Below, in pieces: positions 60 through 21,873 of a DNA stretch of 64,000 nt. The first letter of the stretch is position 1. Every line of letters starts with the position of its first letter. The DNA comes from a virus. A program made the position numbers and the translations under genes. The DNA is taken from the IMG/VR virus record IMGVR_UViG_3300035491_000116, positions 2,239 to 66,238 of that record. The stretch is one strand, 5' to 3'. The notes below the pieces were generated by a model. The model was not told the origin of the DNA and did not search any database. It worked only from the letters and a program-made list of their open reading frames with translations.

Positions 60-60
60 T

Positions 61-479: not shown

Positions 480-552
480 GGGTCGTTACCTCTGGTTTGT
501 GGTATAGCCTGAAGTAGTTGATGCTCTTCGAGGGCCTTGTAGTCGGCGTCGA

Positions 553-1737: not shown

Positions 1738-2279
1738 CGTGGATTGCCCTCAATGTCGTTGGGGTAGGCGTACACCAGACACTCCAGAACGTGCGCTGAA
1801 TCCGTCGGAACATCGACGAGCCGGCCGTTCTGGTCTACCAGCTGCCAGCCTTGCATGACCGCCTTGATGGTAAGCGTGTCACCGTTGTTCATGGCGATCT
1901 GGACGCCGTTCGCCACATGCCCTCGCAGAGAGTGAAAGGCGTCCTGGGTGGTTGTCGTCGGCTCCTCGTCCGGATAGGTGGTCAGGTGCTCCATAACCGG
2001 CCCGTCTTGGTCGATGGCCACCCACTGACAGCAACAGCTGTGTGCGAAGTGGAGCACCTCTTCCAGGTCTGTCGGCCAGTTGTCCGACATATCCTCGACG
2101 CGCTCGGCGACGTGCACTCGCCAGCCGTAGGTGCCGATCGGATCCGTCACAGGCAAGTCGATACCTGTGTCCGGTGTGACACCCATACGCTCTGCGACCT
2201 TGCTGTCCAGCAGATCTCTGGTCTCTTGGGAAATGTGCGCAGTCGATACGACGATCATGCGCTGAATTTCGTATGTCAT
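1734..2279 (-). CDS. hypothetical protein with STAHIS motif (DUF5983-like N-terminus)
   Basis: Likely start MTYEIQRMIVVSTAHISQET, GAGGAAGG RBS, ATGA overlap. Confidence 0.65.
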   Translation of the reverse strand: MTYEIQRMIVVSTAHISQETRDLLDSKVAERMGVTPDTGIDLPVTDPIGTYGWRVHVAERVEDMSDNWPTDLEEVLHFAHSCCCQWVAIDQDGPVMEHLTTYPDEEPTTTTQDAFHSLRGHVANGVQIAMNNGDTLTIKAVMQGWQLVDQNGRLVDVPTDSAHVLECLVYAYPNDIEGNPR

Positions 2280-2692
2280 CCGGCCTTCCTCGCGGTAAGT
2301 GGGCGGTGCTCCCAGCTGATCCGGTGCTTGTCGGCAAGAGAGGCCTGAGCCCACACGCTTCCCGCCACGCCCTCTGGGGCGATGTGCAGCCAGTCGCAGT
2401 GGGTATCCAGCCATTGCACGATCAGGCGCTTGGTCTCTGCGTCGATCTGCCAGGCTGGAACACCACCGTAGAGGTTCACCCCGCCTTCACCCTGCATGAA
2501 GGTGCTGACGTAGTAGCGGGACACGAACTGGCCGTGATCTGTGTGGTCGTAGCGGGCGTCGAAGAACTCGATCAGCGGCTCTTCCTCTGCGTGGATCAAC
2601 TTGTCGTCCAAGCCGTATTTCTGGCCAAACTCAACCAGTCGAATGTTCCACTCGATCTGGTCGTAAAAGGTTGCTGTTTGGTGCATGGTCAC
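2276..2692 (-). CDS. hypothetical protein (138 aa)
   Basis: Coupled ORF with GAGGAG RBS. Confidence 0.7.
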   Translation of the reverse strand: MTMHQTATFYDQIEWNIRLVEFGQKYGLDDKLIHAEEEPLIEFFDARYDHTDHGQFVSRYYVSTFMQGEGGVNLYGGVPAWQIDAETKRLIVQWLDTHCDWLHIAPEGVAGSVWAQASLADKHRISWEHRPLTARKAG

Positions 2693-3036
2693 TCCTCAGT
2701 CAGAATGAAGCCGGCAAACGCGGTCTGCTCGGACCTCACGCCTTTCATGGTGTAGTGGGTATGGACGATGATTCCGGGCATGGCGTAGCCTTCCTCGTCG
2801 TCCAGCGGGGCTTCAAGGGTGAAGCCGTGCCAAACCGCCCAGCCGGTAAGTTCGCGGGCTTTGGTGAAGTCCTTGGCAGTTTTGAACTTGACCGTCATCT
2901 TGTGCAGGATCTGGACACTCTGTACCCCAGTCAGCTCAAGCACCCTCTGCCCAGCGTCCTCACAAACCTCGTCGTGCTCCTCTGTAGAGAGCTTGAGATG
3001 CGGGTAGGGGTAGGCGTTCTGCAGAATCAGTCTCAT
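2689..3036 (-). CDS. hypothetical protein (115 aa)
   Basis: Coupled ORF with AGGAGGAAG RBS. Confidence 0.7.
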   Translation of the reverse strand: MRLILQNAYPYPHLKLSTEEHDEVCEDAGQRVLELTGVQSVQILHKMTVKFKTAKDFTKARELTGWAVWHGFTLEAPLDDEEGYAMPGIIVHTHYTMKGVRSEQTAFAGFILTEE

Positions 3037-4268
3037 GCCGCTTCCTCCTGTTCCTCTGCGAGTCTCACGTCGATCAGCTTGCGGATGGCTTCCGCTTGGG
3101 TAACCAGATACCGACCGTCGCGGTCCAGCGTCTCCAGCAGCATCCGGATCGGGTCGTCCTCTTCAAGCCCCAGCTGCCTGCACAGGTAGGCCACAGACTC
3201 GGTGAATCCGTCCTCTGATACCGCCCGCATCTGGGTACCCGGGCTGAACTCGAAGCAGAACTCAGGACCTGCGAACAGGTGAGTCGCGGCCTTGGCCAGC
3301 TCAACGCAATCGAAGATCTGCTCTCCGATCAGGGGCTCGCCGTCTAGTTCGCACTCCCATGACGGCTGAATCTCGACTGAGCTGCCCATAGGGACGTCGT
3401 GATGGGACAGGGCGCAGGTGAGTCGGCCGAGGCCGATCTGCTGCAGCCATAGCTTGCCGTTGGAGATGGTGAAAGGGGAGTTCACGGAGACCTTGTCGGC
3501 CAGCTCCTCTCCGTCGAAGGCGCACTCTGCGTAAGCGTCTCGACCCCTCCAGTCAGCGTTGCCGATGTCGATTCGCAGGCCGCTGGGCGCCGGCAAGCCT
3601 GCCGCTTCGAGGTGGTTTCCGAGCTGTTCAACCAGCTCGGATAGGTGGGATTTGTAATCGTCCCACTCTTCGCCGGTGCCGACATCCCGGCCGTCAATAG
3701 ACTCAGCGGGCTCGACGATAGGGCGAACTACCGAATCGCAGTGGCCGCAGCGGTGGTACGGGCCGCTTACATGCTCGAACTCGCTACCTTCGTTGTCGTC
3801 GATATGGACTGTCTCAGACGTTCCGCACTTGGGGCATTCCCAGCTGTTGAACAGCTCCAGTTCTGCCTTCCACTGCTCGTAGGTGTCATAGGAGAAGTAG
3901 CCAGCCACCTGGGACTTGACCACCCCGTCCTCGGTGTAGAGGTGGGCACGGTCTACCACGTCAGTAGCGATGCGCTTGAGCCGCTCCTGAAACTGGGCAG
4001 GTTCACAGTTCAACACCCTTGTCGCGTAGTGGAACAGCTGCGACCCGTCAGCCTTGGGGTGGCGGTGCAGGTAGTTCCTTAGCGGGTACTTCAGCTTTTT
4101 CTCGTTGTAGTTCACCAACAGCTGGCGGAGCAGGTGGGGCTGCTCGACGAGGTGCAGGCGGCTGAACTGTTCCGGGGTGGCCCCATGGAACATCAGGAGG
4201 GTTGGCAGATAGGCTGAGGCGTAGTCGCCCATGGCCGATTTTACGATGCCTTGGTAGAGTTTTTTCAT
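3033..4268 (-). CDS. hypothetical protein with zinc-ribbon (CPKC ... CGHC), ~411 aa
   Basis: Probable start MKKLYQGIVK; two CxxC pairs; acidic C-terminal half. Confidence 0.7.
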   Translation of the reverse strand: MKKLYQGIVKSAMGDYASAYLPTLLMFHGATPEQFSRLHLVEQPHLLRQLLVNYNEKKLKYPLRNYLHRHPKADGSQLFHYATRVLNCEPAQFQERLKRIATDVVDRAHLYTEDGVVKSQVAGYFSYDTYEQWKAELELFNSWECPKCGTSETVHIDDNEGSEFEHVSGPYHRCGHCDSVVRPIVEPAESIDGRDVGTGEEWDDYKSHLSELVEQLGNHLEAAGLPAPSGLRIDIGNADWRGRDAYAECAFDGEELADKVSVNSPFTISNGKLWLQQIGLGRLTCALSHHDVPMGSSVEIQPSWECELDGEPLIGEQIFDCVELAKAATHLFAGPEFCFEFSPGTQMRAVSEDGFTESVAYLCRQLGLEEDDPIRMLLETLDRDGRYLVTQAEAIRKLIDVRLAEEQEEAA

Positions 4269-4528
4269 GGCTTTGGTCTCTCGATAACGACAGGGTGCCC
4301 AGCGTCGTCCTGCACTTCGTAGCGGCCTTGGTACTGCAGGGCGTCTACCACCTTCTGGCGGTGGGAATCGTCCAGCCCTGCCGCATCCAGAAACGCCTGG
4401 ACGCTGCACCAGTCGGAGCTGACTTCGCAGTTCAGCTCCCTGTGGAAGTAGGTGAGGCGGTAGGTGCCTCGGTGGCGTATGAAAATCGCGGCGACCTCGG
4501 AGCGGGGGTCGAGTTTGGTGGCTCTCAC
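4265..4528 (-). CDS. hypothetical protein (87 aa)
   Basis: GTG start overlapping the upstream stop. Confidence 0.65.
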   Translation of the reverse strand: MRATKLDPRSEVAAIFIRHRGTYRLTYFHRELNCEVSSDWCSVQAFLDAAGLDDSHRQKVVDALQYQGRYEVQDDAGHPVVIERPKP

Positions 4529-4890
4529 TCCATGTCCTCCGCGGCGTCGGACGGGATGATGTCCACATCCACGTTGTTGTTCTCCCCTGGCAGGGCGAAG
4601 ACAAAGCTCTTGCGCTTAGGCAGCTCACCGGTTTGCCGGTTGTGGAGGCGCATGTCCTCAAGGGCCTTCCGCACTTGGGTGTGCAGTGGTCCGCCGGGGT
4701 CGTTGTGGAAAATGTCCCCGTCTTCCCCAATCTCAAGGATTACGAGCCTGGACTCCACCTCGTGCATCTCTGCGTCGAACAGGCAGTAGTCCTCGAAGGC
4801 GTCTGGGCTAATCTCGTAGATCTCCCAAGTTGACTGCGCTTCACTGGGGCCAATCTCTACGCGGGCCTGCAGTCTGACTGAATGGCTCAT
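4525..4890 (-). CDS. hypothetical protein (start MSHSVRL)
   Basis: GAGGAG RBS; ATGA overlap. Confidence 0.65.
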   Translation of the reverse strand: MSHSVRLQARVEIGPSEAQSTWEIYEISPDAFEDYCLFDAEMHEVESRLVILEIGEDGDIFHNDPGGPLHTQVRKALEDMRLHNRQTGELPKRKSFVFALPGENNNVDVDIIPSDAAEDME

Positions 4891-5345
4891 GCTGTCTTCT
4901 CCTCTGCTTTGCGCAGGTGCCATGCCGGGGGAACCGAGCTGTAAATGACGTCATCCTCGAGGGCGTAATAAAGCTGCTCCTCGATGTAGCCCTTGATGTC
5001 GTTCTTGTCGTTCTTCCCTCCGGCCTTGACGACGATGCCGGTGAACGTAGGGGTGACCCTGACCATGTGGTGAGACCAGTGGGTGTAGCCGCCGTGGTCG
5101 TCCATGTGGTGGAAGGAGGTCTGGAAGGTCAGCAGGTTGTGTGGCGTCTCCGTCTCAGCCATCTGGGTACCTGCATCAAACCCGCTGCCAGACGGCAGGT
5201 GGGTCTTCACCAGTCGATCAATCTCCTCCTCTACGTGGTGGAGTTGCTCACGGGTTCGATCATCGAACTGGGGCTTGTCTCGAAGGGTGTTGCGAATCTG
5301 GCACAGGGACGCCAGAGCGACGTAGAGCTTTGCTTGTTGCGCCAT
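4887..5345 (-). CDS. conserved phage hypothetical protein (LPSGSGFDAG motif)
   Basis: AAGGAG RBS; motif LPSGSGxDxG ... FHHMDDHGGY. Confidence 0.75.
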   Translation of the reverse strand: MAQQAKLYVALASLCQIRNTLRDKPQFDDRTREQLHHVEEEIDRLVKTHLPSGSGFDAGTQMAETETPHNLLTFQTSFHHMDDHGGYTHWSHHMVRVTPTFTGIVVKAGGKNDKNDIKGYIEEQLYYALEDDVIYSSVPPAWHLRKAEEKTA

Positions 5346-5357
5346 GGGGTTGGCTCC

Positions 5358-5711
5358 TTACGGGGTTGTGGGTTGCCGTGTTTGCGTCTCTGCGGGAGGC
5401 ACGTAACGGGTGCCATGCAACATCTGTCTCGCTAACCACGCCGGTTCGATCGGGTAGTCGTTGAGCAGCTCCCGGCGCTGGCGGAAGCAGTCGACGAACC
5501 CTTGGGCCTGAGACCCTTCCTCGTTCTTGAGGATGTCCTCGATGAGCGCCGCCGCCTGCTCCTTCCAGAAGTTGCGGATGCCTACGCAATGGCCGTTGAC
5601 GACGTACTCGATAGTCGCCGTGGAAGGGGAGCGAAGGTCGAAACGCATCTCGATGTATTCGCCCGGGCCAAGTTCTACTGCATGGGTTCCACACTGCCTG
5701 GGGTAGGTCAT
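5358..5711 (-). CDS. hypothetical protein (117 aa)
   Basis: Coupled ORF. Confidence 0.65.
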   Translation of the reverse strand: MTYPRQCGTHAVELGPGEYIEMRFDLRSPSTATIEYVVNGHCVGIRNFWKEQAAALIEDILKNEEGSQAQGFVDCFRQRRELLNDYPIEPAWLARQMLHGTRYVPPAETQTRQPTTP

Positions 5712-6286
5712 GATGACGAATCCTCGTAGCTCAGTAGGCGGGCCTTCAGCTCCTCTGCGTCTTCCGGCAGGCGGTAGTCAATGGCATGGGAGTAGTTATC
5801 CGGGAGCGTCTCGGCCTTCCTGGCCTTGGTCCCCTCGATGACAGCGCGGACGTCCTCGATGGATCCAGACACCCAGATCACGCGGTCATCTGTCTCATCG
5901 GTACCGCCGTCAAACCCGTACCCGAGGATCTCGTACAGGCCGGTTGGCTCGTCGTCTTCATTCCCCACGTCGCGGATCTCGAACCCTTCAGCGGTAAGCA
6001 GGTCGCAGAGGTCGCTGGTCGTGGTTGAGTCCCACTCGACCCCGTCTACCAGCCGATGGATGTCCTCCAACAGGGTGGCGGCTCGCTCTACCGTGTCAGC
6101 GGGCGCTCCAGCCCCGGTGTCATGCCGGCGGAGGAGCTCTGCGAGCGACATGCTCTCGTAGGTGTCTTCCGAGTGATGCGGCTCGATCTCCTTGTTGCAG
6201 GCTGGGCACTTGTCGTTGCAGGCACAGTCCCATTCGTCGATCCACTGCTCACCGCAGGGGCATTCGTAGTGGTTGATATACCTCAT
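5708..6286 (-). CDS. hypothetical protein with N-terminal Cys cluster (CPC...WxxxWDCACNDKCPAC)
   Basis: Coupled ORF; Cys-rich putative metal-binding N-terminus. Confidence 0.7.
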   Translation of the reverse strand: MRYINHYECPCGEQWIDEWDCACNDKCPACNKEIEPHHSEDTYESMSLAELLRRHDTGAGAPADTVERAATLLEDIHRLVDGVEWDSTTTSDLCDLLTAEGFEIRDVGNEDDEPTGLYEILGYGFDGGTDETDDRVIWVSGSIEDVRAVIEGTKARKAETLPDNYSHAIDYRLPEDAEELKARLLSYEDSSS

Positions 6287-6579
6287 ACCGTAGGTCTCCA
6301 GTCGGTGAACACAAACTCAATCGCGGACCAGACAAAGTAGTAAGCCCACTTGCCTTCGATCTTGCCGCGGTGGAACGTCACGAGAGGGTCCGATTCAATC
6401 GGGCTGCCCTTTCGGTACCCAAGCTCCTCTTGGAGCAGCCTGACTTCCTCCACCTTGACGTTCGCAAAGAACGATCTGGAGGTGACCTCGATGGAGCCCT
6501 CAATCAGGTCATTCAAGTGCGCTACGTTACCCGGCCAGTTCTCTCGGTTGCTGAAGAAGGGGAGACTGCGCTTAGCCAT
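6283..6579 (-). CDS. hypothetical protein (98 aa)
   Basis: Coupled ORF with GGAGGG RBS. Confidence 0.7.
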   Translation of the reverse strand: MAKRSLPFFSNRENWPGNVAHLNDLIEGSIEVTSRSFFANVKVEEVRLLQEELGYRKGSPIESDPLVTFHRGKIEGKWAYYFVWSAIEFVFTDWRPTV

Positions 6580-7069
6580 CTTTGCGGCCCTCCAGCCAGT
6601 CCATCACCTTCTTGACTCGCTTAGCGTGGCTCATGTAGGTCTCGCCTCGGCCTCGCGGCGCCATGAAGCTGTAGTGACATTTGCCCAGGCGGACATAGAA
6701 GGTGGTCACGTCGCCGCTGTAGAACTCGCTCATGTAGAACGACTGATTTCCGTTTCCGTGTTGCCAGTCGCAGGGCGGCAGTACCTCCAGCGCGTATTCG
6801 TACTGCTCCTCGGTGATCTCCACCGGGTCAGTGGTCATGGCCTTCTCTGACTCGGCAATGAACTCGTCAGCGTCCCTCAGCACAGCGCCCGTCCGCTCCT
6901 TCATCTCGTCGACGGTGTCGCCGCTGTACATGCCGAACAGCTCGCCGGTTTCGAGGTGCTCCTTCACCCCATCCTGTGCGTTGGTTTTGCCGGGCACCAC
7001 GAACAGGAGATCCCAGCGAGCCTTGAATTTGGGCACGTCGGTGCCCGCCACTTGAGTAGCGTCAGTCAT
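6572..7069 (-). CDS. DUF1419-like domain protein
   Basis: EITEEQYEYALEVLPP...FYMSEFYSGDVTTFY resembles the DUF1419 motif; start MTDATQV with AAGGAC RBS. Confidence 0.55.
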   Translation of the reverse strand: MTDATQVAGTDVPKFKARWDLLFVVPGKTNAQDGVKEHLETGELFGMYSGDTVDEMKERTGAVLRDADEFIAESEKAMTTDPVEITEEQYEYALEVLPPCDWQHGNGNQSFYMSEFYSGDVTTFYVRLGKCHYSFMAPRGRGETYMSHAKRVKKVMDWLEGRKDG

Positions 7070-7085
7070 TTGGTTTGTCCTTGGG

Positions 7086-7523
7086 TTAGATGGTATGAAC
7101 GAGCTTGTCGTCGCCGAGGTATACCTCGAACGGGCCTGCCTCGCCGCAGGCATTGGTAAGGGCGTCACGGACGTCCTCCGGCACCTCTGAGCGGTCCCAG
7201 AAGCCAGCCCCGTGCCCGTTGCGGGTCAGGGCGAAGTCGTGACCTGCGTAGTCCCAGACGGTGCCTTGGGATGGGTCGAACTCCTTGTGCTCGACGTAGC
7301 GCAGGAGGTTCGGCAGGTTCGCATCGAAGAACGCCTTGCACTCTGCGGCGCAGTCCATAGCTGCCTTCTCGGAGATCTCGTACTCGTCAAGGTGCACGTC
7401 CTCGCCGGTCACCGGGTCGGTGTCCATGGAGGACCAGAGCAGGGCGGTGATGTAGCCGCGGGTGAAGTATTGGAGGGCGGCGCTGGTACGGGTGTCTTGC
7501 TCGTCGGCTGGTGTTTTAAGCAT
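7086..7523 (-). CDS. conserved phage protein with GHDFxLTRNGHGAGFWDR motif
   Basis: YITALLWSS and AGHDFALTRNGHGAGFWDR motifs; GAGGA RBS. Confidence 0.75.
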   Translation of the reverse strand: MLKTPADEQDTRTSAALQYFTRGYITALLWSSMDTDPVTGEDVHLDEYEISEKAAMDCAAECKAFFDANLPNLLRYVEHKEFDPSQGTVWDYAGHDFALTRNGHGAGFWDRSEVPEDVRDALTNACGEAGPFEVYLGDDKLVHTI

Positions 7524-7722
7524 GGCTGACGTCCTCTGCCAGTCGAAATGTCTGCTCCGGGAACTGCTCCCGGAACCACGCGAGGTCCTCTGCCCCGTAC
7601 TCTGCACGGGTAGGGAGGGCTTTGCTCTTCTCCTCGCAGGTCTGTACTTCCTTCTGCGGCATCCGGCGGCAGAACACCCAGGCCCAGGCTCCGTCATTAC
7701 GCTGTACTTGTAGCTTCTTCAC
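7516..7722 (-). CDS. hypothetical protein (68 aa, GTG start)
   Basis: AAGGAG RBS upstream of GTG; fills the gap between neighbours. Confidence 0.55.
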   Translation of the reverse strand: MKKLQVQRNDGAWAWVFCRRMPQKEVQTCEEKSKALPTRAEYGAEDLAWFREQFPEQTFRLAEDVSHA

Positions 7723-8011
7723 TTTGCTTCTCCTTGATGAACAGGGTGAAACCGTACCTGGAGCCTGCCAGACCAGACCGGCACAGCTCGCACTCTTGGT
7801 TGCTGAACTCCTCGTACCCATCACCATCGGGGTCGTCCTCGGTAGGCTCCACACCGCACGACAGGTGGCCTTCCCGGCCGTTCAGCTCTCGGGCAAGGTC
7901 ACCGTGGCGATCAGCGCTGAAATCGTCACCAGCGCCCTCTGGGGCGTCGTCGTTCACCCAGTAGTGCAGGCAGTCTTCGCAGACGCTGTATTCATAGGTT
8001 TCGTAGTTCAT
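7697..8011 (-). CDS. acidic zinc-finger-like protein (CEDC ... CELC)
   Basis: Two CxxC pairs; coupled start. Confidence 0.65.
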   Translation of the reverse strand: MNYETYEYSVCEDCLHYWVNDDAPEGAGDDFSADRHGDLARELNGREGHLSCGVEPTEDDPDGDGYEEFSNQECELCRSGLAGSRYGFTLFIKEKQSEEATSTA

Positions 8012-8523
8012 CAGCTCAACTCCTTCATGGCCTGCCGGCCAGCGATCAAGGCGTCATTGATCAGCCCCACGTCAGCAACGATGTGCTTGGCGCCCGGCAG
8101 CAGGTTCTCGATTGCCTGGATGCAGAGGTTGAGCGCAGCTCCTACGTTCACCGGTGCGGGCTGGGGCTCATTGAATGACAGGTCGTCGGGGTAGGCGGCG
8201 ACCACTGATTCCACCCACTTGGTGGCGTCCACGCTTTCAGGGCCTTCTTCCCTCACCTGCTCGATCAGTTGCAGCATCGGCTCGCTGCTCAGGTCGTCCA
8301 GCACCTCGTAGGCAAAGATCATCGAGTTGTCGGAGAAGTCGATCAGAGCGGTGATCTCCTGAGAAATGGAGATGGCCAGCTCGCCTACCCCACACATGAA
8401 GGCGTCCTCTGCCTCCCACCACTCGGCGTCTTGGTAGGCGTCTGAGTTTTCAACGTAGTTACGGTGCAGGCGGGAGGCGATGTACGCCATATCCGCCGGG
8501 TCAAACGGTTTCATGACTTGCAT
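8011..8523 (-). CDS. acidic hypothetical protein
   Basis: Start MQVMKPF after the AAGGACAAACCA leader. Confidence 0.7.
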   Translation of the reverse strand: MQVMKPFDPADMAYIASRLHRNYVENSDAYQDAEWWEAEDAFMCGVGELAISISQEITALIDFSDNSMIFAYEVLDDLSSEPMLQLIEQVREEGPESVDATKWVESVVAAYPDDLSFNEPQPAPVNVGAALNLCIQAIENLLPGAKHIVADVGLINDALIAGRQAMKELS

Positions 8524-8708
8524 TGGTTTGTCCTTTGGTTGATTGATCTCATCAGTTCCACCGACTGCCGGCTTCGCTCCTTCACAAAACACTCTGGGTG
8601 GTTGGGGAACAGGCGGGTGTAGTCGGATGGCTTGCCTCCGGTTTTCGCTGCCCGTTCAGCCGCACTGGGCACGAGCACTACTGGCTTTCCGCAGTATTTG
8701 CAGGGCAT
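8511..8708 (-). CDS. small conserved phage protein (CxxCGKP...PSAAERAAK)
   Basis: Same AAGGACAAACCA leader; CxxC plus H-x-x-C motifs. Confidence 0.7.
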   Translation of the reverse strand: MPCKYCGKPVVLVPSAAERAAKTGGKPSDYTRLFPNHPECFVKERSRQSVELMRSINQRTNQCKS

Positions 8709-8805
8709 TGGTTTGTCCTTCAGATTTGAAGAGGGTGGCGCCGGCCGAGTGAGAGAAGGTTCCGCCTTTCATCCCGAGCGGGGCCGGCACCATAAACAGG
8801 GGCCG

Positions 8806-9252
8806 TTACAGTTCGTGGATCTCGTCGAGGGTGAGCCCGCTATCGTCCCACATGGCGGGGTAGACGGTGCCTCGGTACATTCCGACCACTATGAGGTCGT
8901 CCACGCCACACTCCCATTCCTCGGCGCACTCTTCCAGAGCCAGTTTTGCTGCCTCCTTGCTGGAGTCTGTGGCAACTGCGGTGTGGTAGGTACTCGTGCT
9001 GGACCGGTCCTGCAGGGCGCAGATCACCGTGTACGCCCTGTCCTGGGCGTGGCTGAGGTCTTGGGTGATGGTCACCTTGGCTTCGTACCCCTGGGTCGCG
9101 GAGTCTCGGGTGATCAGGACTTTGTGGCTGACGTCTTCCGCACCCAGGTCGAGATTGGCCGAGCTTGCCACGCTCTCCGCAAGCAGCTTGACGATCTGGG
9201 GTTGGTTTAACGTGTGAAATATCACCCTCTCGTGGATGATCCTCTCTTTCAC
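8806..9252 (-). CDS. hypothetical protein
   Basis: GTG start with GGAGGAG RBS overlapping the upstream stop. Confidence 0.65.
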   Translation of the reverse strand: MKERIIHERVIFHTLNQPQIVKLLAESVASSANLDLGAEDVSHKVLITRDSATQGYEAKVTITQDLSHAQDRAYTVICALQDRSSTSTYHTAVATDSSKEAAKLALEECAEEWECGVDDLIVVGMYRGTVYPAMWDDSGLTLDEIHEL

Positions 9253-9890
9253 AGTGACTCCTCCGCCCGCTCGATGATCCAATCCAGCAGCTCCCAGCGG
9301 TCACGACCTTGCTGGGTGTCGCGGCCCCAGTCAGCCTCTGAAACCCCGCCGTCCGGGTCTGGAACCGGGTAGCAGAAAGCCCCACTGTGCTTAGGCCAGC
9401 CGGCAGCGAGTTGGCGCACTGCCGTGTAGAGGCTGACACCGAGTTCGTAGGCGTCAAGTATGTCATCCAGATTGGAGCAGATGCCTTGGTAACTTATCGT
9501 CGGCCCGTACTTCCTCAGGCGCTTCATACCCTCAACGATCTCTTTCACACTGCCCGGTCTGTCCTCGACAAACCTATCCCATGTAGCATCCAACGCCGAG
9601 GACAGGCCATAGGTTAAGTTGGCAATCAGCTCCGCGGCCGAGTTGCCCCACACGACCAGGAAAGAGCCGCGCCGGGCCGTGCCTTCAACGTCGTTGGTAA
9701 AGTGGAGCCAGCACTCCTCAACCTGATTGGCCTTGATCATCGCCTCGACATGCGAGAGGCCTTCAGCAGGCTCCCTGCCGTCGCCGTCGTCAATCTCCGT
9801 GAGTCGCCATCCACGGTAGTCCAGCTCCGCGATGGTGCGGACCAGGGCGAAGCGCTCCGCCGCGGTGTAGAACACATTTGCTTCAGTCAT
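9249..9890 (-). CDS. hypothetical protein (213 aa)
   Basis: AAGGAG RBS; coupled. Confidence 0.7.
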   Translation of the reverse strand: MTEANVFYTAAERFALVRTIAELDYRGWRLTEIDDGDGREPAEGLSHVEAMIKANQVEECWLHFTNDVEGTARRGSFLVVWGNSAAELIANLTYGLSSALDATWDRFVEDRPGSVKEIVEGMKRLRKYGPTISYQGICSNLDDILDAYELGVSLYTAVRQLAAGWPKHSGAFCYPVPDPDGGVSEADWGRDTQQGRDRWELLDWIIERAEESL

Positions 9891-10111
9891 TTGGCTTGCT
9901 CCTTGGTCTTTCTGGTTGGCTCCACGACTACTGCCGCAAACGTCGATGAGCTGAATTTGGTGCTACGGATTTCCCTCGCACATTTATTGAGCGCTGCGGC
10001 TACCTTTTTTGCCTGCTTGGCGTCGAGGTAGACCGTCTCCCCGTCAACACCGAGGAAAGACACAGCGGCCCTGTCGAAGAAGCGGTGGATGCCTACGCGC
10101 ACCTGGTTCAT
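9887..10111 (-). CDS. hypothetical protein (start MNQVRVG)
   Basis: ATGA overlaps at both ends. Confidence 0.6.
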   Translation of the reverse strand: MNQVRVGIHRFFDRAAVSFLGVDGETVYLDAKQAKKVAAALNKCAREIRSTKFSSSTFAAVVVEPTRKTKEQAK

Positions 10112-11193
10112 ACCGGTAGCCCCAGTTGGTTGTGGCTGTAGATCACCAGCGCGTCCCGCACCTTGTCGCGCTCTACGTTGCGGGTCAGCTCCAGTCCGGC
10201 TTCGTCGTAGCCGACCCATTCGCTGCCGTCCCACTGGATATGTGGGTCAGTCCAGTGGGGTACGCGGTGAACAGACAGCTCGAAGACGTCGAAGAGGTCT
10301 CGGTTGGCAGCGACGGGGTTGGACAAGCAGACGCTGGTCATGTTGGGGTATGATTTGCTGACGATCAGGTAAGCGTCGGGGAAGTCGCTGACGGGCAGTT
10401 GATCGGCGTTGCTTGGGTACGTGTCGATCAGCTCTCGTGCTTTATCCAGGGCTTGGCTAGCTGCTACTGGGCCTTGCCCGAACACGTTCATGAAGTGCCT
10501 CAAGTGTCCGGAGACATCTGCGAGCGCGGCGACTAGCGCTTTCGACCCTTTGCCGGCTCCTTTCGGCGCTTCCAGAGCGTGGTCATTGGGTTCTCTCATC
10601 AGCTTCTTCAGCTCGCAGCGGACCCACTCGTCAGCGTCCTTCAAGGCCCCGGTATCTCTGGCTTCCGAGTAATCCTTCTCACACTTCTGCTGGAACTCCC
10701 AAGCCTCTCTGAGGCCTTTTAGCGGACTAGCCGGCTGTTCGCCCGTGTTGGCCGCATACGTCACCGGCACCTGCTTCAGACCGGTGAGGATCTCGTAGGG
10801 CTGGAAGGAGCTGGAAGGGAAGACCGTTCGAGTCTCGAACAGGTGATTGTTCGACAGTTCCTCGAACCGGCCGTGGTCACAGGTTGCGAAGTCATCCTGT
10901 CCCTTTCTGCGGTACAAGTAGACTGGCGGCGCCTCCGGCAACTCCGCCAGCATGGCCTTGTAGATCAGGACGGCGATGGTGCCCTTGCTGATCACATGGT
11001 CCTTGGTGCGTAGCTCTGCCTCGTCGCCCATCCACGCGGGTATCTCATGGCCGAGATTGCCCAGATGCTCCACCAGCGTGGATGGCGTGTGCTTGTTGCT
11101 CGGGTAGGAACGCATCCACCACACAATACTGCGGGCGAGGCCACCCCACTGGGCCTCCGTGGGGTTGAATGGGGCGATTACGTGTTTGGTCAT
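10108..11193 (-). CDS. multi-domain hypothetical protein (361 aa)
   Basis: Long ORF coupled at both ends. Confidence 0.75.
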   Translation of the reverse strand: MTKHVIAPFNPTEAQWGGLARSIVWWMRSYPSNKHTPSTLVEHLGNLGHEIPAWMGDEAELRTKDHVISKGTIAVLIYKAMLAELPEAPPVYLYRRKGQDDFATCDHGRFEELSNNHLFETRTVFPSSSFQPYEILTGLKQVPVTYAANTGEQPASPLKGLREAWEFQQKCEKDYSEARDTGALKDADEWVRCELKKLMREPNDHALEAPKGAGKGSKALVAALADVSGHLRHFMNVFGQGPVAASQALDKARELIDTYPSNADQLPVSDFPDAYLIVSKSYPNMTSVCLSNPVAANRDLFDVFELSVHRVPHWTDPHIQWDGSEWVGYDEAGLELTRNVERDKVRDALVIYSHNQLGLPV

Positions 11194-11591
11194 TTTGGTT
11201 CCCTGGGAAGGTTTCGGGAGAGGTCGAGGGGATGCACACCGAACAGGTTGGCCATCGGCACCTGTAGTTGCTTGCGAAGGGTGTCCAGAGTCAGCTGCAG
11301 CGTCTGAATACGGGCCTGCTCCTCCGTCATCCCGTCCATCATGGCGGCTGCGGCGTTGTAGGCGTCGTCATCGACATAGGGGAGTTCCCCGTAGCCACGG
11401 AAGCTATACCCGATAAGCTGGGCGAGTTGCTGGTGGTCCTCCCGGGAGTAGTCACCCCGGGCGATCTCGTTGAGACCAAACCCGTGTTCCGTAGCGAAGT
11501 CGAGGAGGTCTCTGACGATCTTGTTCTGCAGGAACCGCGTGTTTCCTGCCTCGTCGACGACGAGGGGCTGGATTGGGGGCTTCTTGGTCAT
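11190..11591 (-). CDS. conserved phage hypothetical protein (RFxxNxIVxxLLD ... QLAQLIGYS)
   Basis: Recognisable motif family; AAGGAC RBS. Confidence 0.75.
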   Translation of the reverse strand: MTKKPPIQPLVVDEAGNTRFLQNKIVRDLLDFATEHGFGLNEIARGDYSREDHQQLAQLIGYSFRGYGELPYVDDDAYNAAAAMMDGMTEEQARIQTLQLTLDTLRKQLQVPMANLFGVHPLDLSRNLPREPK

Positions 11592-11770
11592 TGCTTTGTC
11601 CTTACGTTGCTCATTGATGGCTGGCGGCCTTCCTCCAGCGCCTTGGTGTGTTCTTCCCGCATGGCCGGCGTCCAGGCTGACATTGGGGAGCCGAAGTCCA
11701 CGCACTGGTCCCAGCGCTGTGCCTGAGCAGTCCAGAAGGAGTAGGGCGGCATTCCGCTACGGGTAGTCAT
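11588..11770 (-). CDS. hypothetical protein (60 aa)
   Basis: Coupled at both ends. Confidence 0.55.
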   Translation of the reverse strand: MTTRSGMPPYSFWTAQAQRWDQCVDFGSPMSAWTPAMREEHTKALEEGRQPSMSNVRTKQ

Positions 11771-12147
11771 GCGGCTTTCCTCTCGTAGTCCCGAACCAAG
11801 ATGAACCAGAGCTTTTTCACCTTCTCCGGCTCATCACCGAACATCCACTCCCGGATCGTCTTCTCGATGACCTTGCGGGTGACCGGCTCGTTGTCACTGA
11901 ACAAGGGGCTGATGTACTTGCTGGTGCGCACGTCAACGGTGTAGGTCTCGCCGTCTCGGGTCTTGTACGTCACCTCTTTGGTGGCCCGCTCGATGGTGTC
12001 GAACAGGCCTCCGCTGCCATCAGCGAACTTGACCCACACCTCCAGTACAGTGGCGGGGCCTTGCTGGGCTGCCCACTGGCGCATGGCGGAGTGGAGGCCG
12101 TGGTCGGTGTGGAAGTCGCGGGCTTTCGGTTTAGGTGTTCTGGGCAT
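11767..12147 (-). CDS. hypothetical protein (126 aa)
   Basis: GGAGG RBS; coupled. Confidence 0.7.
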   Translation of the reverse strand: MPRTPKPKARDFHTDHGLHSAMRQWAAQQGPATVLEVWVKFADGSGGLFDTIERATKEVTYKTRDGETYTVDVRTSKYISPLFSDNEPVTRKVIEKTIREWMFGDEPEKVKKLWFILVRDYERKAA

Positions 12148-12595
12148 TGGCTTCTGCCTCCATCATTCGTTCGTGAAGCTGCATCAGTTCATCGTGTTCA
12201 GCCCGGTATTCAGCCCGCTCCTTCAGGAAGTTGTCGAACGTAATCTCTCCGTCAGGGGCGTAGATGAAAACCCGGATTTGGGTATGGCCACCACGGTCAA
12301 AATCGTCAGCGATCTTCCAGACCAGCGTGCCAGGCTTGAAGTCTTGGAGGATCGGCAGGCGCTCTTGCCTGAGGACGTGCTCGGCCAGGTCGAAGTCCTC
12401 ATAAGCTCCGTACCACTCAGGGGAGAACTGCTCGAAGGTCTCGCTAACGATGGCAGGGATGTCTACCTGCAAGCAGTAGCAGATGTCGTCCAGGGTTAGC
12501 TTCGCCGGGGGTTTAGGGTCACCTTCACTGCGGAAGAACACCCATTCGATCAGCTCCTTGAGCTGTTCCTTGGTTTCAACCCTTACCATGTGCAT
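12131..12595 (-). CDS. hypothetical protein (154 aa)
   Basis: AAGGAG RBS; overlaps neighbours. Confidence 0.7.
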   Translation of the reverse strand: MHMVRVETKEQLKELIEWVFFRSEGDPKPPAKLTLDDICYCLQVDIPAIVSETFEQFSPEWYGAYEDFDLAEHVLRQERLPILQDFKPGTLVWKIADDFDRGGHTQIRVFIYAPDGEITFDNFLKERAEYRAEHDELMQLHERMMEAEANAQNT

Positions 12596-13046
12596 CGGTA
12601 TGCTCCTTGAATGATTCGTTGAGCATGTCCAGCATCCGGTCTTCGCCTACTCGGTGCAGCGTCTCAAAGCAGTGGTTGCAGCCGACCCAGAGCAGGGTGC
12701 GGATCTCATTGAGCTTGTGCCTGCCGTCCTGTACCCCGGCGGCTCCGACGGGGCGCAGGTTCCACGACAAGTCGGTGCTCCCGCAGAAGCTGCAGCGGGT
12801 GTCTCTGAAGGAGGACGGGGTCGATTCACTGCGCAGCGTCAAGCTGATCAGTCCCCGGTCATGCTCGGCCATGTTGTCGATCGCCTCCGCTACCGTCTGG
12901 TCGAACTGACCCTGCTCCTCCAGCTGGGCGCTGGTGCCATAGTTGAGCTGGGCATGGGAGCAGGCCTCGGCGCTGCGGAGAATGTCACGCAGGTCCTTGA
13001 GGGAAAGGCGGCCGAGGTAGGCTGTGAGGATTCTGGCGTGGTTCAT
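12576..13046 (-). CDS. zinc-ribbon protein (CSFC ... CNHC)
   Basis: Two CxxC pairs; GAGG RBS. Confidence 0.7.
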   Translation of the reverse strand: MNHARILTAYLGRLSLKDLRDILRSAEACSHAQLNYGTSAQLEEQGQFDQTVAEAIDNMAEHDRGLISLTLRSESTPSSFRDTRCSFCGSTDLSWNLRPVGAAGVQDGRHKLNEIRTLLWVGCNHCFETLHRVGEDRMLDMLNESFKEHTDAHGKG

Positions 13047-13273
13047 TGATCTGATACCTCGTAGTCAGGGTGCCAATGGACCCGGAAGTCGTCGAAGTCC
13101 CGCCGGGTCGCCTGGCGGTACTGGTGCGGGTAAACCGGGAAGATGAGGCCGTCCAGGTTGGTGGTGCCGATGGCGCCTCGGAGCACACTGGCGTGGAGGA
13201 TCTCGACGCTGTAGAACTCCTTGCCTTCCCGGAGCAGCCCCAGGGTGTGGCCTTTGTAGACGACGGCCTTCAT
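13043..13273 (-). CDS. hypothetical protein (76 aa)
   Basis: Coupled ORF. Confidence 0.7.
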   Translation of the reverse strand: MKAVVYKGHTLGLLREGKEFYSVEILHASVLRGAIGTTNLDGLIFPVYPHQYRQATRRDFDDFRVHWHPDYEVSDQ

Positions 13274-13557
13274 TGGTCTGGCTCCGGTCGGTTAAGCACC
13301 TCGAAAACGTGGAAGACTAGGCCGTTCTGCATCTGCACGGTGCCAATGAAGGCGAGGTCTACGCCTTCGGGAAGGTTGTGGCCGGTACCTGCCACGATGA
13401 TCTCTCGGGCTTCGTAGGCACGGTGGCTGTCGTCCACCTTGGCCCAGAGAAATATCTGGTCACCTTGGGCACCGACGGACAGGATCCCTGACTCAGCCGG
13501 CATGCTGATTACCTCTTGCGCCGTGTGGATGAGGTATTTCCAGACTCTGTAGGTCAT
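13270..13557 (-). CDS. conserved phage protein (VWKY...LWAKVD...GTG...FIGTVQ...LVFHVFE; DUF7352-like)
   Basis: Widespread small phage family motif; GGAGG RBS. Confidence 0.75.
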   Translation of the reverse strand: MTYRVWKYLIHTAQEVISMPAESGILSVGAQGDQIFLWAKVDDSHRAYEAREIIVAGTGHNLPEGVDLAFIGTVQMQNGLVFHVFEVLNRPEPDQ

Positions 13558-13568
13558 GGGTTAGCCTC

Positions 13569-13985
13569 CTACGCGATGAACTCACGGATGCGGGCGGCGA
13601 CCTCTTCCGCTCTGGTTCCTTCTTCTCCCGTGTAGCTATCCGGGGAGAAAAGGTGCCGGGCTTCCTCGTAGTAGATGCCGAAGAAATCCTCTACCGCGTC
13701 CCAGCCGGACGAGTATCGGTAAGAGGGGAGGTCCTCGTATGCCCGCAGCCCTTGCTCGTTGAACCAAGGGTCGAGGCAGGCATAGCCAACCGCACAGGCG
13801 ACCGTGCCGCACTCGTGGTGCTCCACCTCGTCCTCTGACAGGCCGGAGGCTACAGCGGTGTCCTTCACGTCCATGAAGCAGAGGTCTTGGGTCTTATGGA
13901 CCCAGACGGAAAGGTTGAATGGCCTACGTTCCAACGCCACCTTGTCCAGCAGCTCTGCCAATTTCGTCAGTCGTTCAATATTCAT
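13569..13985 (-). CDS. conserved phage protein (CGTVACAVG motif)
   Basis: Start MNIERL; FNLSVW and CGTxAC motifs. Confidence 0.75.
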   Translation of the reverse strand: MNIERLTKLAELLDKVALERRPFNLSVWVHKTQDLCFMDVKDTAVASGLSEDEVEHHECGTVACAVGYACLDPWFNEQGLRAYEDLPSYRYSSGWDAVEDFFGIYYEEARHLFSPDSYTGEEGTRAEEVAARIREFIA

Positions 13986-16466: not shown

Positions 16467-17219
16467 GCGATTCCTTGGGGCTTAAAAAAGTCGGAATGAA
16501 ACAAGCACTTTTTTTGTCCGCCGGTGGAGCAGCGAGTCCTAAGCTGTCGCCTAGTGTTAGCAAATGTCTCCTAGTGGATGCGATTGTCACCGGTATTAAA
16601 AAATCCCGAACACGGTGTTCAGTATCTTTTACGATATTCGCAAGTGCTTGATTTTACTGGGTTATTTCCTGTCCACAAGTGGACGCTGTAGTGGTGTGAA
16701 TGAGTACAAATTGCGACCTTAACGGGGGTTTCAGGCGAATTTCTGGGGTCGTTGGCACCTTGGTTGACGGGGAAGGCGACAGTTTTGGATGACGGGCTTG
16801 GTCAGCGGATGAGAGCTGTTCTCATTCTGGGACCAGATTTGGGCTAAATCAGGCTGAGATTGATGTGATTGATTATGGGCTGGATAGGCCGAGATAGAGG
16901 CTTTCCGAGTCAATCAAGCAGCGTGATGTCGTGAGGAGGTAGGAAGTGGCTGGGGGTTTGGTTGTTTTTTCGTAGAGACTCTGCGCTGAAACGCCTAATA
17001 GACTTTCAAAAAAACTTCTGCCGAAAAAATTTTTTCGGCGCTCCCAGAGCAAATTCTGGAGAATCTATGGAAAAACACACACCACAACCATCACAAAACG
17101 ATCCCCTATATATATATAAATAAACAATAATTATATTTATATATTATAAGGGGCCGTTATATTGCTCCTTTCATATTACCGGCCCGTTATATAACCCAAA
17201 CCCAATACAAAACTCTCAA
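16467..17219. other. structured non-coding block with palindromes and a 43-nt AT-only core (candidate origin or control region)
   Basis: No credible ORF; perfect 20-bp palindrome 17020-17039; 17107-17149 is all A/T except one C. Confidence 0.6.
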
Positions 17220-17504
17220 TCAAGCCCAGGGCTTGAGGTTGTTCCTACCACGCTGCCCAAACCCGAACCCGCGCCGACGCACCGGGCCGGAGCCGAACTC
17301 GTGCCGCTTCCAACCCGGCTGCTTGCGCCCAATCAGCCAGCAGACCGCTGCGGCACCGAGGATCATCAAACACAACGCCAGCCACAGCCCCAGGAAGGCC
17401 GCTGCCGGCGCTGAAAGGTCGAAGGTGCACCCAACCCACAGGGCCAGTTCCTGCGTAACGCTGGGCGACGCTGGGGACGCCTCACAGAATTGGTTTACAG
17501 GCAT
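17220..17504 (-). CDS. small single-pass membrane protein (94 aa)
   Basis: AAGGAG RBS; hydrophobic stretch AFLGLWLALCLMILGAAAVCWLIG followed by a basic tail. Confidence 0.6.
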   Translation of the reverse strand: MPVNQFCEASPASPSVTQELALWVGCTFDLSAPAAAFLGLWLALCLMILGAAAVCWLIGRKQPGWKRHEFGSGPVRRRGFGFGQRGRNNLKPWA

Positions 17505-17719
17505 GTCAGGTGCTCCTTGAGGTCGCTGGGGACCTCGCTGATGACCTTGGAGCCGGAGACGCCGCTGGTGCCGTAGCTGCACAGCACCCCGGCGACCTTG
17601 GTGAGTGCACACGGGATCGAACCGTGCGCGGTGGCTGGGAACCAAACAAGGCCCGGGAAGGCCTCTGCGGCTTCAGCTGCGAGCTGCTCAGCGGCGACGT
17701 CGGTATCAATGCGGGTCAT
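17495..17719 (-). CDS. hypothetical protein (74 aa)
   Basis: GGGAG RBS; overlaps the next gene. Confidence 0.6.
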   Translation of the reverse strand: MTRIDTDVAAEQLAAEAAEAFPGLVWFPATAHGSIPCALTKVAGVLCSYGTSGVSGSKVISEVPSDLKEHLTCL

Positions 17720-17724
17720 GGCGG

Positions 17725-18069
17725 TTACTCCCTGATCAGTCTGGTGACGCCGACGATGCGGCCGTTTTGGTCCCGGATCGGGCCGTCATTGGGGCCGGTA
17801 CCGGGGGCGAGGACGTCAGGCCGGCTGATACCGGCGGTTTTGAGGGCCTTGAGCACCAAGCTGGAGGTGACGTAGTGGACGCCCTCCTGCGGCTCTGGCA
17901 GGCCCTCGACCTCGCTGAAGGCGTTTTCGTAGACCGGCATTCCGCCGACCTCACCAACGAACACCGAGGAGGATCTGACACGGGCAAGCTGGCCGCTGAC
18001 CGGCAGCTCGACCACGCCGTCGGCGGTGTAGAGGGTCAGGGCGTGAGGGGTCATGTTGATCAGTTGCAT
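17725..18069 (-). CDS. NxTPH-motif protein, candidate Crn4-like cyclic-oligoadenylate ring nuclease
   Basis: LINMTPH ... SGQLARV ... LPEPQEGVHYVTSSLV ... RPDVLAP ... IRDQNGRIVG; family assignment is from memory. Confidence 0.5.
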   Translation of the reverse strand: MQLINMTPHALTLYTADGVVELPVSGQLARVRSSSVFVGEVGGMPVYENAFSEVEGLPEPQEGVHYVTSSLVLKALKTAGISRPDVLAPGTGPNDGPIRDQNGRIVGVTRLIRE

Positions 18070-18201
18070 AATTTTTTCCTTTTCGGGTAGCCACCTTTGC
18101 GGCTACCCGTCTTTGCGGTATTGATGGCCACCTTTGCGGCCGTTCGTCTCCGGCTTTCAGTGTTCAGGATAGCGAACAGCCGGTTTTGATACTTGCCGTG
18201 T

Positions 18202-18669
18202 TTACGGCTTTGGGGCGGCGCCGGGCACGTCCATGGCGGACAGGGCGGCTGTGAGAGCCTCAGCGGCGGCGTCAGCGTCGATCCGGTTGGCGGTGGGGCC
18301 GTGGGTATGGTTAAGCGACTCACGGACCTCAGCGGGGCGCTTACGCAGCGCCTCGACCATATCCCGCTCCCCAAGGGAGTGGGCATTCATCATCGCCGCT
18401 GGGATGGCCATGAGGAATCCTGGCTGGGTGTAGTCGGCCGCTTTCAGCCGTTTCATCTTGATCTCGCAGTTGAACCGATGCGGCATGACGCCGTAACGCT
18501 CCGGCATGATCCGGCGCAGCTTGCCGATGACGCTGCGCGGGGTGTCGGCAGCCAGGAACAGGCTGTGAACCGCGTAGACAACGCCCTGCTCTTTGAGGCG
18601 CAGGGTTACCAGATAGACGTTAGGACGAGGCAGCTCGCCGGCTGCGATAAACAGGCTGTGATTCGGCAT
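18202..18669 (-). CDS. hypothetical protein (155 aa)
   Basis: AAGGAACCAAGACA leader before ATG. Confidence 0.7.
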   Translation of the reverse strand: MPNHSLFIAAGELPRPNVYLVTLRLKEQGVVYAVHSLFLAADTPRSVIGKLRRIMPERYGVMPHRFNCEIKMKRLKAADYTQPGFLMAIPAAMMNAHSLGERDMVEALRKRPAEVRESLNHTHGPTANRIDADAAAEALTAALSAMDVPGAAPKP

Positions 18670-18778: not shown

Positions 18779-19027
18779 TCAGGTGGCCGAGGTCAGCCAC
18801 AGCTCGTTGCGTGTCCACTTCCAACCGAGGACGCTGAAAGTGATCTGGAGCACTTGGCGGACCTGCAACGGGTCGCCGGTCTCCAGTGCCAGCTCAATGG
18901 CGTGGCTTGCCTGACACGCTGCGACGAAGTCCGCGATGGACTCCACGCCGCCGTTCATCTGCTTGCCGAGCTGGCGGAGGCTGCCGCGAACGTCGACGGC
19001 AAGGTGTTTGATAGCGTTGGTTTTCAT
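18779..19027 (-). CDS. hypothetical protein (82 aa)
   Basis: AAGGAAATCAAGAC leader. Confidence 0.65.
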   Translation of the reverse strand: MKTNAIKHLAVDVRGSLRQLGKQMNGGVESIADFVAACQASHAIELALETGDPLQVRQVLQITFSVLGWKWTRNELWLTSAT

Positions 19028-19131
19028 GTCTTGATTTCCTTGTATTTATCTATGTATTAGGGGTTTTCTGACCAACTATCAGCGCCGGTCTGGCTGGGGG
19101 TTTTGATAGTTGGGCCGGCTGATAACCGGAT

Positions 19132-19166
19132 AATAAAAAGCCCGTCCAGACAGTGCCTGGACGGGC
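19132..19166 (-). terminator. intrinsic terminator 2
   Basis: Minus strand: GCCCGTCCAG-7 nt loop-CTGGACGGGC followed by TTTTTATT. Confidence 0.75.
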
Positions 19167-19181
19167 GTACACGCGCGCGCG

Positions 19182-19215
19182 AATAAAAAAGCCCCGACCG
19201 GAAGCCCGGTCGGGG
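19182..19215 (-). terminator. intrinsic terminator 1
   Basis: Minus strand: CCCCGACCGG-GCTT-CCGGTCGGGG-CTTTTTTATT, directly after the 19222 stop. Confidence 0.85.
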
Positions 19216-19221
19216 TGTGGG

Positions 19222-19869
19222 TTAGGCCTTGGCCTTGGGTGCCGCCTTTTCCTTGCTGGTCGGCTTGATTGCCGCCAGTTGCGCGGCCTTGTCGCCGTCC
19301 ACACTGTCCGGCGCGGCCTTGGTCAGCGCTGCGCTTGCCACCTTGTACAGTTCGGCCAGTTGGTCGGACAATGCGACCGCTTCGGCATTGTCGGCCAGCT
19401 TGACGCCGTTTTGCAGCGCCTCGGCCAGCTTGGCCATACGGTCGGCCAGTTGTTTACCGGTCAGCGGTTTAGGCGGCTGTTCCGGCTTTTCCTCTTTTTC
19501 GACCGCTTCAAATTGTGCAAGCGTCAATTTGAAAGTCTGGCCATCGGCCAGCACTTCGGCCAGTTGGCGGCGTTCGGCTTTTTTGCTAAGCGTCCAGCCG
19601 TCAGTAATGGAATATTGCAGGCCTTTTGTATGTGCTTTGATATACGCCACGACCCGGCGACTATCAGCAGACGGCTTGCCGCTGGCGGTCTGACACGCTT
19701 TCATCATATTGTTGAGCCAGTCGGCTTGACCGTTCAAGATAGCGTGCGCTGCTGCTGCGTTGGCCCAGTCGCCCAAGGCGTCAAGCGCTTTTGCCTTGGT
19801 AGTGGCGAAGCCTTTCATTGTTGCGCTGGTAACTACTTTGCCGCGGATAATGATTTTTTGATTTGCCAT
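19222..19869 (-). CDS. Ala/Lys-rich hypothetical protein, outermost early gene
   Basis: Start MANQKII after the CAGGAATCAAGACA leader (the track starts it at 19908); followed by a strong terminator. Confidence 0.75.
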   Translation of the reverse strand: MANQKIIIRGKVVTSATMKGFATTKAKALDALGDWANAAAAHAILNGQADWLNNMMKACQTASGKPSADSRRVVAYIKAHTKGLQYSITDGWTLSKKAERRQLAEVLADGQTFKLTLAQFEAVEKEEKPEQPPKPLTGKQLADRMAKLAEALQNGVKLADNAEAVALSDQLAELYKVASAALTKAAPDSVDGDKAAQLAAIKPTSKEKAAPKAKA

Positions 19870-21846: not shown

Positions 21847-21873
21847 TGTTATTATTGCTGTATGGACATACAG
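21847..21873 (+). promoter_or_regulatory. extended -10 promoter (TG-T-TATTAT) with an overlapping LexA/SOS box CTGTATGGACATACAG (21858-21873)
   Basis: CTGT-N8-ACAG; 14/16 identical to the E. coli recA operator core CTGTATGAGCATACAG. Confidence 0.7.

Follow-up and report, generated by a model that had tools for sequence, protein, structure and literature searches.

A Crn4-like ring nuclease candidate encoded by an integrated temperate prophage from a tar-pit metagenome

Introduction

The question raised by the gene at positions 17725..18069 (minus strand, stop codon included in the coordinates; 114 aa) of an uncultivated viral genome is whether its product belongs to the Crn4 ring nucleases and, if so, what such an enzyme may do for the element that carries it. 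The stretch of DNA analyzed in the present study, hereafter referred to as the window, comprises 64,000 nucleotides and corresponds to bases 2239-66238 of a 79,229-bp IMG/VR record from a tar-pit metagenome. An initial annotation of these letters had named the 114-aa protein as a candidate Crn4-like enzyme against type III CRISPR immunity.

Regarding Crn4 itself, the family, its fold, its mechanism, and its phage and plasmid orthologs were already published in 2025 (PMC12830947), and what is new here is the window copy in an uncultivated prophage. Crn4b was reported to degrade cA3 and cA4 and to leave cA6 uncut, and Crn4a, a cellular enzyme, relieved type III CRISPR immunity in E. coli in a plasmid-challenge assay (PMC12830947). 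Copies on mobile genetic elements were proposed to be anti-CRISPRs, and possibly anti-CBASS enzymes for cA3 systems (PMC12830947).

Family Assignment and Predicted Structure

The PADLOC profile PDLC01138, named Unk_01 after the earlier name of Crn4, matched residues 1-111 of the protein at profile positions 1-98 of 103 (E 1.4e-17, 62.2 bits). In a phmmer search against all PDB chains, Crn4b (9R7B) was matched at E 1.1e-5 over residues 2-109 of the 114-aa protein, and the weaker matches were Crn4a (9SMA, E 3.4e-3) and its H15A variant (9QS9, E 0.07); the E-value to Crn4b was, thus, better than that to Crn4a. The protein had no Pfam match at E<=10 and no NCBIfam family match, and in PHROGs it matched two families of unknown function and nothing else.

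An AlphaFold2 model built on an alignment of 34 homologs (mean pLDDT 96.5, pTM 0.84) has nine strands and one short helix, and shows the fold described for Crn4, which combines a short helix with four or five pairs of beta-strands and differs from any other solved fold. A Foldseek search of the PDB with this model returned seven matches at E<=1e-3, every one of which was a Crn4 chain (E 1.9e-9 to 8.4e-8, TM 0.64-0.70), and the first match after these was at E 0.33. As in proteins of the Crn4b type, the hairpin extension of approximately 10 residues found in Crn4a is absent, and the hairpin consists of strands 33-41 and 44-51. The Crn4 identity put forward in the initial annotation was, therefore, supported by the profile, by sequence matches in the PDB, and by the fold search; the outcome that would have spoken against it, a lack of any Crn4 match, was looked for and did not occur.

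In Crn4a, H15 and R112 are essential, T13 lies behind H15, and the hydroxyl of S91 and several main-chain atoms bind cA6 (PMC12830947). HMMER alignments placed H9 of the window protein at Crn4a H15 and Crn4b H17, T7 at Crn4a T13, S69 at Crn4a S91, and R99 at the catalytic arginine, which is R112 in Crn4a and R103 in Crn4b. The residues by which the family is recognized, a threonine and the essential histidine within N-x-T-P-H and an essential arginine near the C terminus, are accordingly present as T7, H9, and R99. The motifs listed in the initial annotation were all found in the translation, as N5-M-T7-P8-H9 and S25-G26-x-x-A29-R30, as L57-P-E-P60-x-x-G63-x-x-Y66-x-x-S69-x-x-V72, and as R83-x-D85-x-x-x-P89 and R99-D100-x-x-G103-x-I105-x-G107. 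Nine residues (H9, R30, G56, P58, P60, R83, D85, P89, and R99) are invariant in 34 homologs. When the window protein was considered together with 80 viral homologs, H9 and S69 were each conserved in 81/81, R99 in 80/81, R30 in 78/81, and R83 in 77/81; the N-terminal and loop motifs served as search patterns, such that their invariance is partly circular, while S69, R30, and R83 are free of this circularity. Based on the profile, sequence, fold, and catalytic residues, the 114-aa protein is almost certainly a member of the Crn4 family, and the conserved residues make it a strong candidate for an active nuclease of cyclic oligoadenylates (cOA).

A two-copy complex of the protein was predicted with a score of 0.81, against 0.03 for the best of three controls. 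Among proteins solved as same-chain pairs, 20 of 30 reached the mark set for this score, as did 1 of 23 proteins solved as single chains; these counts are approximate because a custom alignment was supplied. The runs shared at least 95% of their contacts, and the pLDDT of the partner chain was at least 91. In the predicted interface, the tip of the hairpin (residues 41-49) faces the C-terminal strand of the partner (108-114), with additional contributions from residues 87, 90, and 94-95 of a long loop. This hairpin-swapped arrangement is the one published for Crn4, dimers of which have already been solved; the prediction consequently indicates likeness and may echo these solved structures. The window protein is, thus, predicted to form a Crn4-like hairpin-swapped homodimer.

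The differences from the solved enzymes are as follows. In comparison with Crn4b (MBK8772583, from a Hyphomicrobiales bacterium; 9R7B, PMC12830947), the hairpin region of the window protein is approximately 4 residues shorter, the S-R pair of Crn4b is replaced by S69-S70, and 5-6 residues (GTGPND) are inserted before the arginine. The gene for Crn4b adjoins Can2 in a type III CRISPR locus, whereas the window gene lies in a prophage and encodes a candidate enzyme. Crn4a from Actinomyces procaprae (WP_136192672; 9SMA in the apo form, 9QS9 as H15A with cA6) is only weakly similar (E 3.4e-3), has a hairpin approximately 10 residues longer, also cleaves cA6, and, in type III-D loci, is associated with Csm6-2/CorA.

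Genetic Setting and the Prophage

The gene is the third of five in a leftward unit from 19027 to 17220, the products of which are 82, 155, 114 (Crn4-like), 74, and 94 aa. The 82-aa gene (18779..19027, minus strand) is the first after the upstream terminators, is without a family match, and is syntenic in two relatives, L100 and L103. The 155-aa gene (18202..18669, minus strand), directly upstream of the Crn4-like gene, has no family or atlas match. The 74-aa gene (17495..17719, minus strand) follows the stop codon of the Crn4-like gene at a distance of 5 nt, also without a family match, and the 94-aa gene (17220..17504, minus strand), with a hydrophobic segment, is the last in the unit and is followed by a non-coding block at 16467-17219. 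At the upstream edge, two tandem GC-rich terminator-like hairpins with T-runs (19140..19215, minus strand) close the gene for a 215-aa protein (19222-19869), which is one gene upstream of the unit; beyond it lie a 1-kb non-coding region and then HU-like, small-terminase, and large-terminase genes. The block of six genes, consisting of the 215-aa gene and the five-gene unit, is syntenic in L100 and L103. None of the five other genes of this block, nor the next genes, had an informative Pfam or PHROG match, and no cas family was matched among the flanking genes scanned. A cos or pac site in the 1-kb region would place the unit at one end of the virion DNA.

The 132-nt spacer upstream of the Crn4-like gene contains a hairpin, GGGTAGCC-GCAAAGGT-GGCTACCC (18085..18108, minus strand), which is not followed by a U-run and is, therefore, not a terminator. 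A second, smaller hairpin in the same spacer (18126-18141, minus strand) has the same 8-nt loop GCAAAGGT and a GGCC/GGCC stem, and a third copy of CCGCAAAG is also present; within the window, exact CCGCAAAGGTGG is confined to the two hairpin sites. A promoter scan of the minus strand near the unit returned no sigma-70-like site, and spacer 19030-19140, when read by eye, contains weak hexamers only. The non-coding block of 750 bp at the downstream end (16467-17219) has an almost pure A/T core at approximately 17107-17149, and may represent an origin, a cluster of promoters, or a site related to packaging. It also carries a repeated ATATAACGG(G/C)CC motif and a perfect palindrome, GCCGAAAAAATTTTTTCGGC, at 17020-17039.

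Outside the window, the record encodes a tyrosine integrase (record 342-1571) and carries an 18-bp direct att repeat, TCCATCATTGCCCATATC, at both ends (record 109-126 and 79104-79121). The last 156 bases of the record encode the N terminus of LepA/EF-4 (match to E. coli LepA, 3DEG, at E 6.7e-24), while at the left end the start of lepA passes into phage DNA and then stops. Since the LepA N terminus is encoded at the right end and the lepA start is broken off at the left, the phage inserts near the beginning of lepA, in its 5' end, where a replacement start codon and the first codons of lepA are provided by the phage side of attR. The element is, thus, an integrated temperate prophage and not a free lytic phage. 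A prophage falls within the settings described for Crn4 genes, which are type III CRISPR loci, fusions to cOA effectors, and phages or plasmids.

The right arm of the element encodes PolA, ThyX, SNF2 and PIF1-like helicases, a ligase, and SbcCD-like proteins. A 20-kb leftward block, which includes window positions 1-13600 on the minus strand, is mostly unknown apart from Nmad5, DUF5983, and DUF7352 proteins and a protein with a DNA-polymerase PHROG match; the full PolA of the right arm is separate from this last protein. Searches for tRNA genes, which covered the window and the ends of the record, were negative, and no Rfam family was matched in the window. Partial relatives of the element occur in wastewater, freshwater, and marine runs, and no RNA dataset was listed among the public runs with such sequence. 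The large terminase shares approximately 53% identity with its counterparts in Pseudomonas phages UAntarctica, Lana, and PMBT3, and a megablast search of the region against cultured phages returned no match. The host is probably proteobacterial. When the lepA flank was compared with a 401-genome sample from the class to which the genome of locus L007 belongs, the matches were restricted to conserved lepA of small genomes, at no more than 77% identity over the full stretch. A LexA-box-like palindrome, CTGTATGGACATACAG (CTGT-N8-ACAG; window 21858-21873), precedes a small gene joined to the terminase; this single match compares with 1.29 expected by chance for the bare pattern, and is a weak hint of a proteobacterial host.

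Distribution of Homologs

In IMG/VR, a relative was detected by two peptide motif patterns on at least 132 contigs, against 11 loci in a survey of one genome each of 185,579 species, and these cellular loci are scattered over Gammaproteobacteria, Patescibacteria, Bacteroidota, Actinomycetota, Acidithiobacillus, and Thermoproteota. Crn4 orthologs were previously reported from 11 phages and 10 plasmids (PMC12830947). In line with that report, tblastn identified homologs in 20 cultured-phage records and 7 plasmids; the phage carriers include Bacillus phages Shbh1 and Mgbh1, Paenibacillus phages Scottie and Unity, Microcystis viruses MaMV and LMM01, archaeal viruses, and Pararheinheimera phage KLER1-1. 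Uncultivated viruses, thus, carry the family far more often than the published count would suggest (at least 132 IMG/VR contigs vs 11 cultured phages).

When the proteins of the block were compared by tblastn with 15 loci, the Crn4-like gene alone was common to the loci. A Pfam analysis of 150 flanking ORFs from approximately 75 viral loci revealed heterogeneous neighborhoods with no cas gene, no recurrent family, and no conserved partner; the families found beside viral Crn4-like genes are SSB, recombination, and methylase genes, together with many unknowns. The Crn4-like gene is, thus, a mobile stand-alone module with no fixed partner. Among the five cellular homolog-carrying genomes searched, none had a Csm1-type Cas10 (TIGR02578) above the cut-off.

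Several homologs have a noteworthy setting or architecture. A phage contig with a P22-type portal, L004, encodes a 63%-identical Crn4 homolog and an Acb2/Tad1 hairpin-domain protein (PF24729) at L004:2123-2368 and 10001-10345, and this phage, thus, combines two distinct means of countering cyclic nucleotides. The Crn4 homolog gp44 of Bacillus phage Shbh1 is located two genes past gp42, for which the depositors' annotation gives a 'CRISPR related domain' (L104:1570-2112, L104:2480-2830). In fused forms (P0046, P0050, P0052, P0063, P0074, P0076, and P0145), the Crn4 domain is N-terminal in proteins of 276-359 aa or C-terminal in a protein of 473 aa, and the other parts of these proteins have no Pfam match, except for a weak double zinc ribbon in P0050.

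Proposed Mechanism and Biological Role

The mechanism described below is proposed by homology to the solved enzymes; the activity, substrate range, time of expression, and counter-defense role of the window protein are inferred. Two 114-aa chains would pair as a homodimer, each wrapped by the beta-hairpin (residues 33-51) of the other, and a cyclic oligoadenylate would occupy the cavity at the center of their interface. The ring may be held by S69 and main-chain atoms, and R99 of one chain may grip a phosphate; from the other chain, H9 would act as the general acid in a metal-independent cut of the ring, which would release linear A2>P or A1>P products. The likeliest substrates would be cA4 and cA3, as for Crn4b. 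The second messengers of type III CRISPR Cas10 and of cA3-producing CBASS cyclases would be removed in this manner, effectors such as Can2, Csx1, and NucC would stay off, and the phage would escape. Taken together, we regard it as probable that the protein is a stand-alone, short Crn4b-like ring nuclease of a temperate prophage, which would cut cA3 and cA4 and blunt type III CRISPR or cA3-CBASS.

By its proposed action, the protein is closest to AcrIII-1/Crn2 (DUF1874), which is also a small dimeric viral destroyer of cOA that uses a histidine as the general acid and acts against type III CRISPR. AcrIII-1/Crn2 is, however, unrelated to the window protein in fold and sequence, and is specific for cA4, whereas Crn4b also cuts cA3; DUF1874 had no Pfam match to the window protein at E<=10, and no DUF1874 structure was among its fold matches. 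The phage anti-CBASS phosphodiesterase Acb1 and the Acb2/Tad sponges are likewise phage-encoded removers of cyclic oligonucleotide signals, including cA3, but have no sequence or fold relation to the window protein; cGAMP-type signals are also within the broad range of Acb1, and the sponges bind without cutting. Acb1, Acb2/Tad, and Crn4 all trigger the type II Panoptes guard system when expressed, and the Panoptes triggered by Crn4 expression is cA3-guarded (PMC13577387), which represents a predictable cost to a phage that carries Crn4.

Regarding the stage at which the gene acts, the initial annotation had placed it in an outermost early module. Its wording needs to be changed because the element is an integrated temperate prophage, for which an early module is only an inference; early expression in the lytic cycle and moron-like expression in the lysogen fit a terminator-bounded unit beside packaging genes equally well. 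We propose counter-defense during the lytic cycle as the main role and give it a modest preference. The chief alternative is that cOA immunity is dampened by expression in the lysogen. The same enzyme would then be a prophage 'moron' that is expressed in the lysogen rather than early in the lytic cycle, and that lowers cOA or tunes host signaling; low cOA would spare the prophage-carrying cell from type III CRISPR/CBASS in the case of self-targeting or leaky prophage transcription. This possibility is consistent with the integrase and the att repeat in lepA of an integrated prophage, with the insulation of the unit by two strong terminators upstream and the 750-bp non-coding block downstream, as is often the case in morons, with the homolog of temperate Paenibacillus phage Scottie, which adjoins Cro/CI-type regulators, and with the function of cellular Crn4 as an off-switch (PMC12830947). 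We nevertheless consider it unlikely as the full account, as homologs are also carried by phages that are large and apparently lytic (Bacillus phage Shbh1, a member of the Herelleviridae, and Microcystis myoviruses), and lytic and lysogen roles could both hold.

A more far-reaching view, which we regard as doubtful, is that virus-borne Crn4, including the form with the PGTGPNDG loop, constitutes a large and barely recognized class of phage ring nucleases, perhaps commoner in viromes than the 11 cultured phages would indicate, that is tuned to cA3 and cA4 and disarms type III CRISPR and cA3-CBASS, and that it acts here from an insulated moron-like unit to blunt cOA immunity in the lysogen. The window gene leaves the current picture of the Crn4 family unchanged. 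With its compact size (114 aa), confident model, and full set of catalytic residues, its product represents a practical candidate for a first test of a viral Crn4, for which type III CRISPR, cA3-CBASS, and the triggering of Panoptes are testable targets.

The Loop before R99 and Substrate Choice

The protein has a long loop before R99 (residues 88-97, APGTGPNDGP), within which a conserved insertion of 5-6 residues, PGTGPNDG (residues 89-96), lies directly N-terminal of R99 and touches the partner chain in the predicted dimer. The spacer from R-x-D to the catalytic arginine is most commonly 12 residues among the 150 best cluster representatives, and is 7 in Crn4a and Crn4b. In homologs from cultured phages, the loop is short (Scottie), intermediate (Shbh1 and KLER1-1), or long; it is, therefore, variation within the family and not a separate class, and the long loop as a sharply distinct new variant was rejected on these grounds. 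The equivalent of Crn4a R92, the guanidinium of which stacks on an adenine (PMC12830947), is S70 in the window protein and A, G, or S in most viral homologs, and E16 of Crn4a corresponds to A10.

The 89-96 insertion could alter substrate choice. The protein may accordingly have the Crn4 fold with a shifted specificity, namely, for cA3 only, for other CBASS oligonucleotides, or for short linear A-rich RNA, or it may act mainly as a signal sponge. The conserved PGTGPNDG insertion beside R99 and the loss of the R92 equivalent are in keeping with such a shift, as is the variation in specificity within the family, in which Crn4a cuts cA3/4/5/6, Crn4b cuts cA3/4 only, and the Crn4 domain of TSR1 prefers cA3; poly(A) is also nicked by Crn4a. 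We consider a shift of this kind to be improbable because the near-invariant catalytic histidine and arginine and the ligand serine speak for catalysis over mere binding, cAAG is left uncut by Crn4a, which suggests adenine specificity in the family, and loop length is continuous among phage homologs, from short in Scottie to intermediate in Shbh1.

Maintenance of the Reading Frame

The Crn4-like ORF on the minus strand opens with an ATG, as seen in the ORF listing and translation, and a Shine-Dalgarno sequence read from the letters, AGGA (18077..18080, minus strand), is located 7 nt 5' of this codon. A phmmer search against 1.84 billion cluster representatives returned 4467 clusters at E<=1e-3, 837 of which were at E<=1e-10. 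In comparisons with two relatives, which are 88% and 90% identical, the dN/dS of the gene was 0.149 and 0.298, respectively; the gene is under purifying selection, and is real and maintained. The reading of the ORF as a chance ORF or a decaying remnant, to which the missing Pfam and NCBIfam matches and the longer overlapping ORF on the opposite strand might lend some weight, may be dismissed in view of the homologous clusters, which number in the thousands, the invariance of the catalytic residues, the dN/dS of 0.15-0.30, good Shine-Dalgarno sequence, model pLDDT of 96.5, and synteny kept in relatives.

The longer plus-strand ORF itself (17605..18090) was rejected as a gene and is attributed to a shadow frame of the GC-rich gene that it overlaps. 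The neighboring 155-aa gene diverges much more rapidly than the genes around it, with 47% amino acid identity and a dN/dS of 0.40 in the comparison with locus L100, in which the identity of the Crn4-like gene is 88%, and this divergence is the pattern expected for an arms-race protein.
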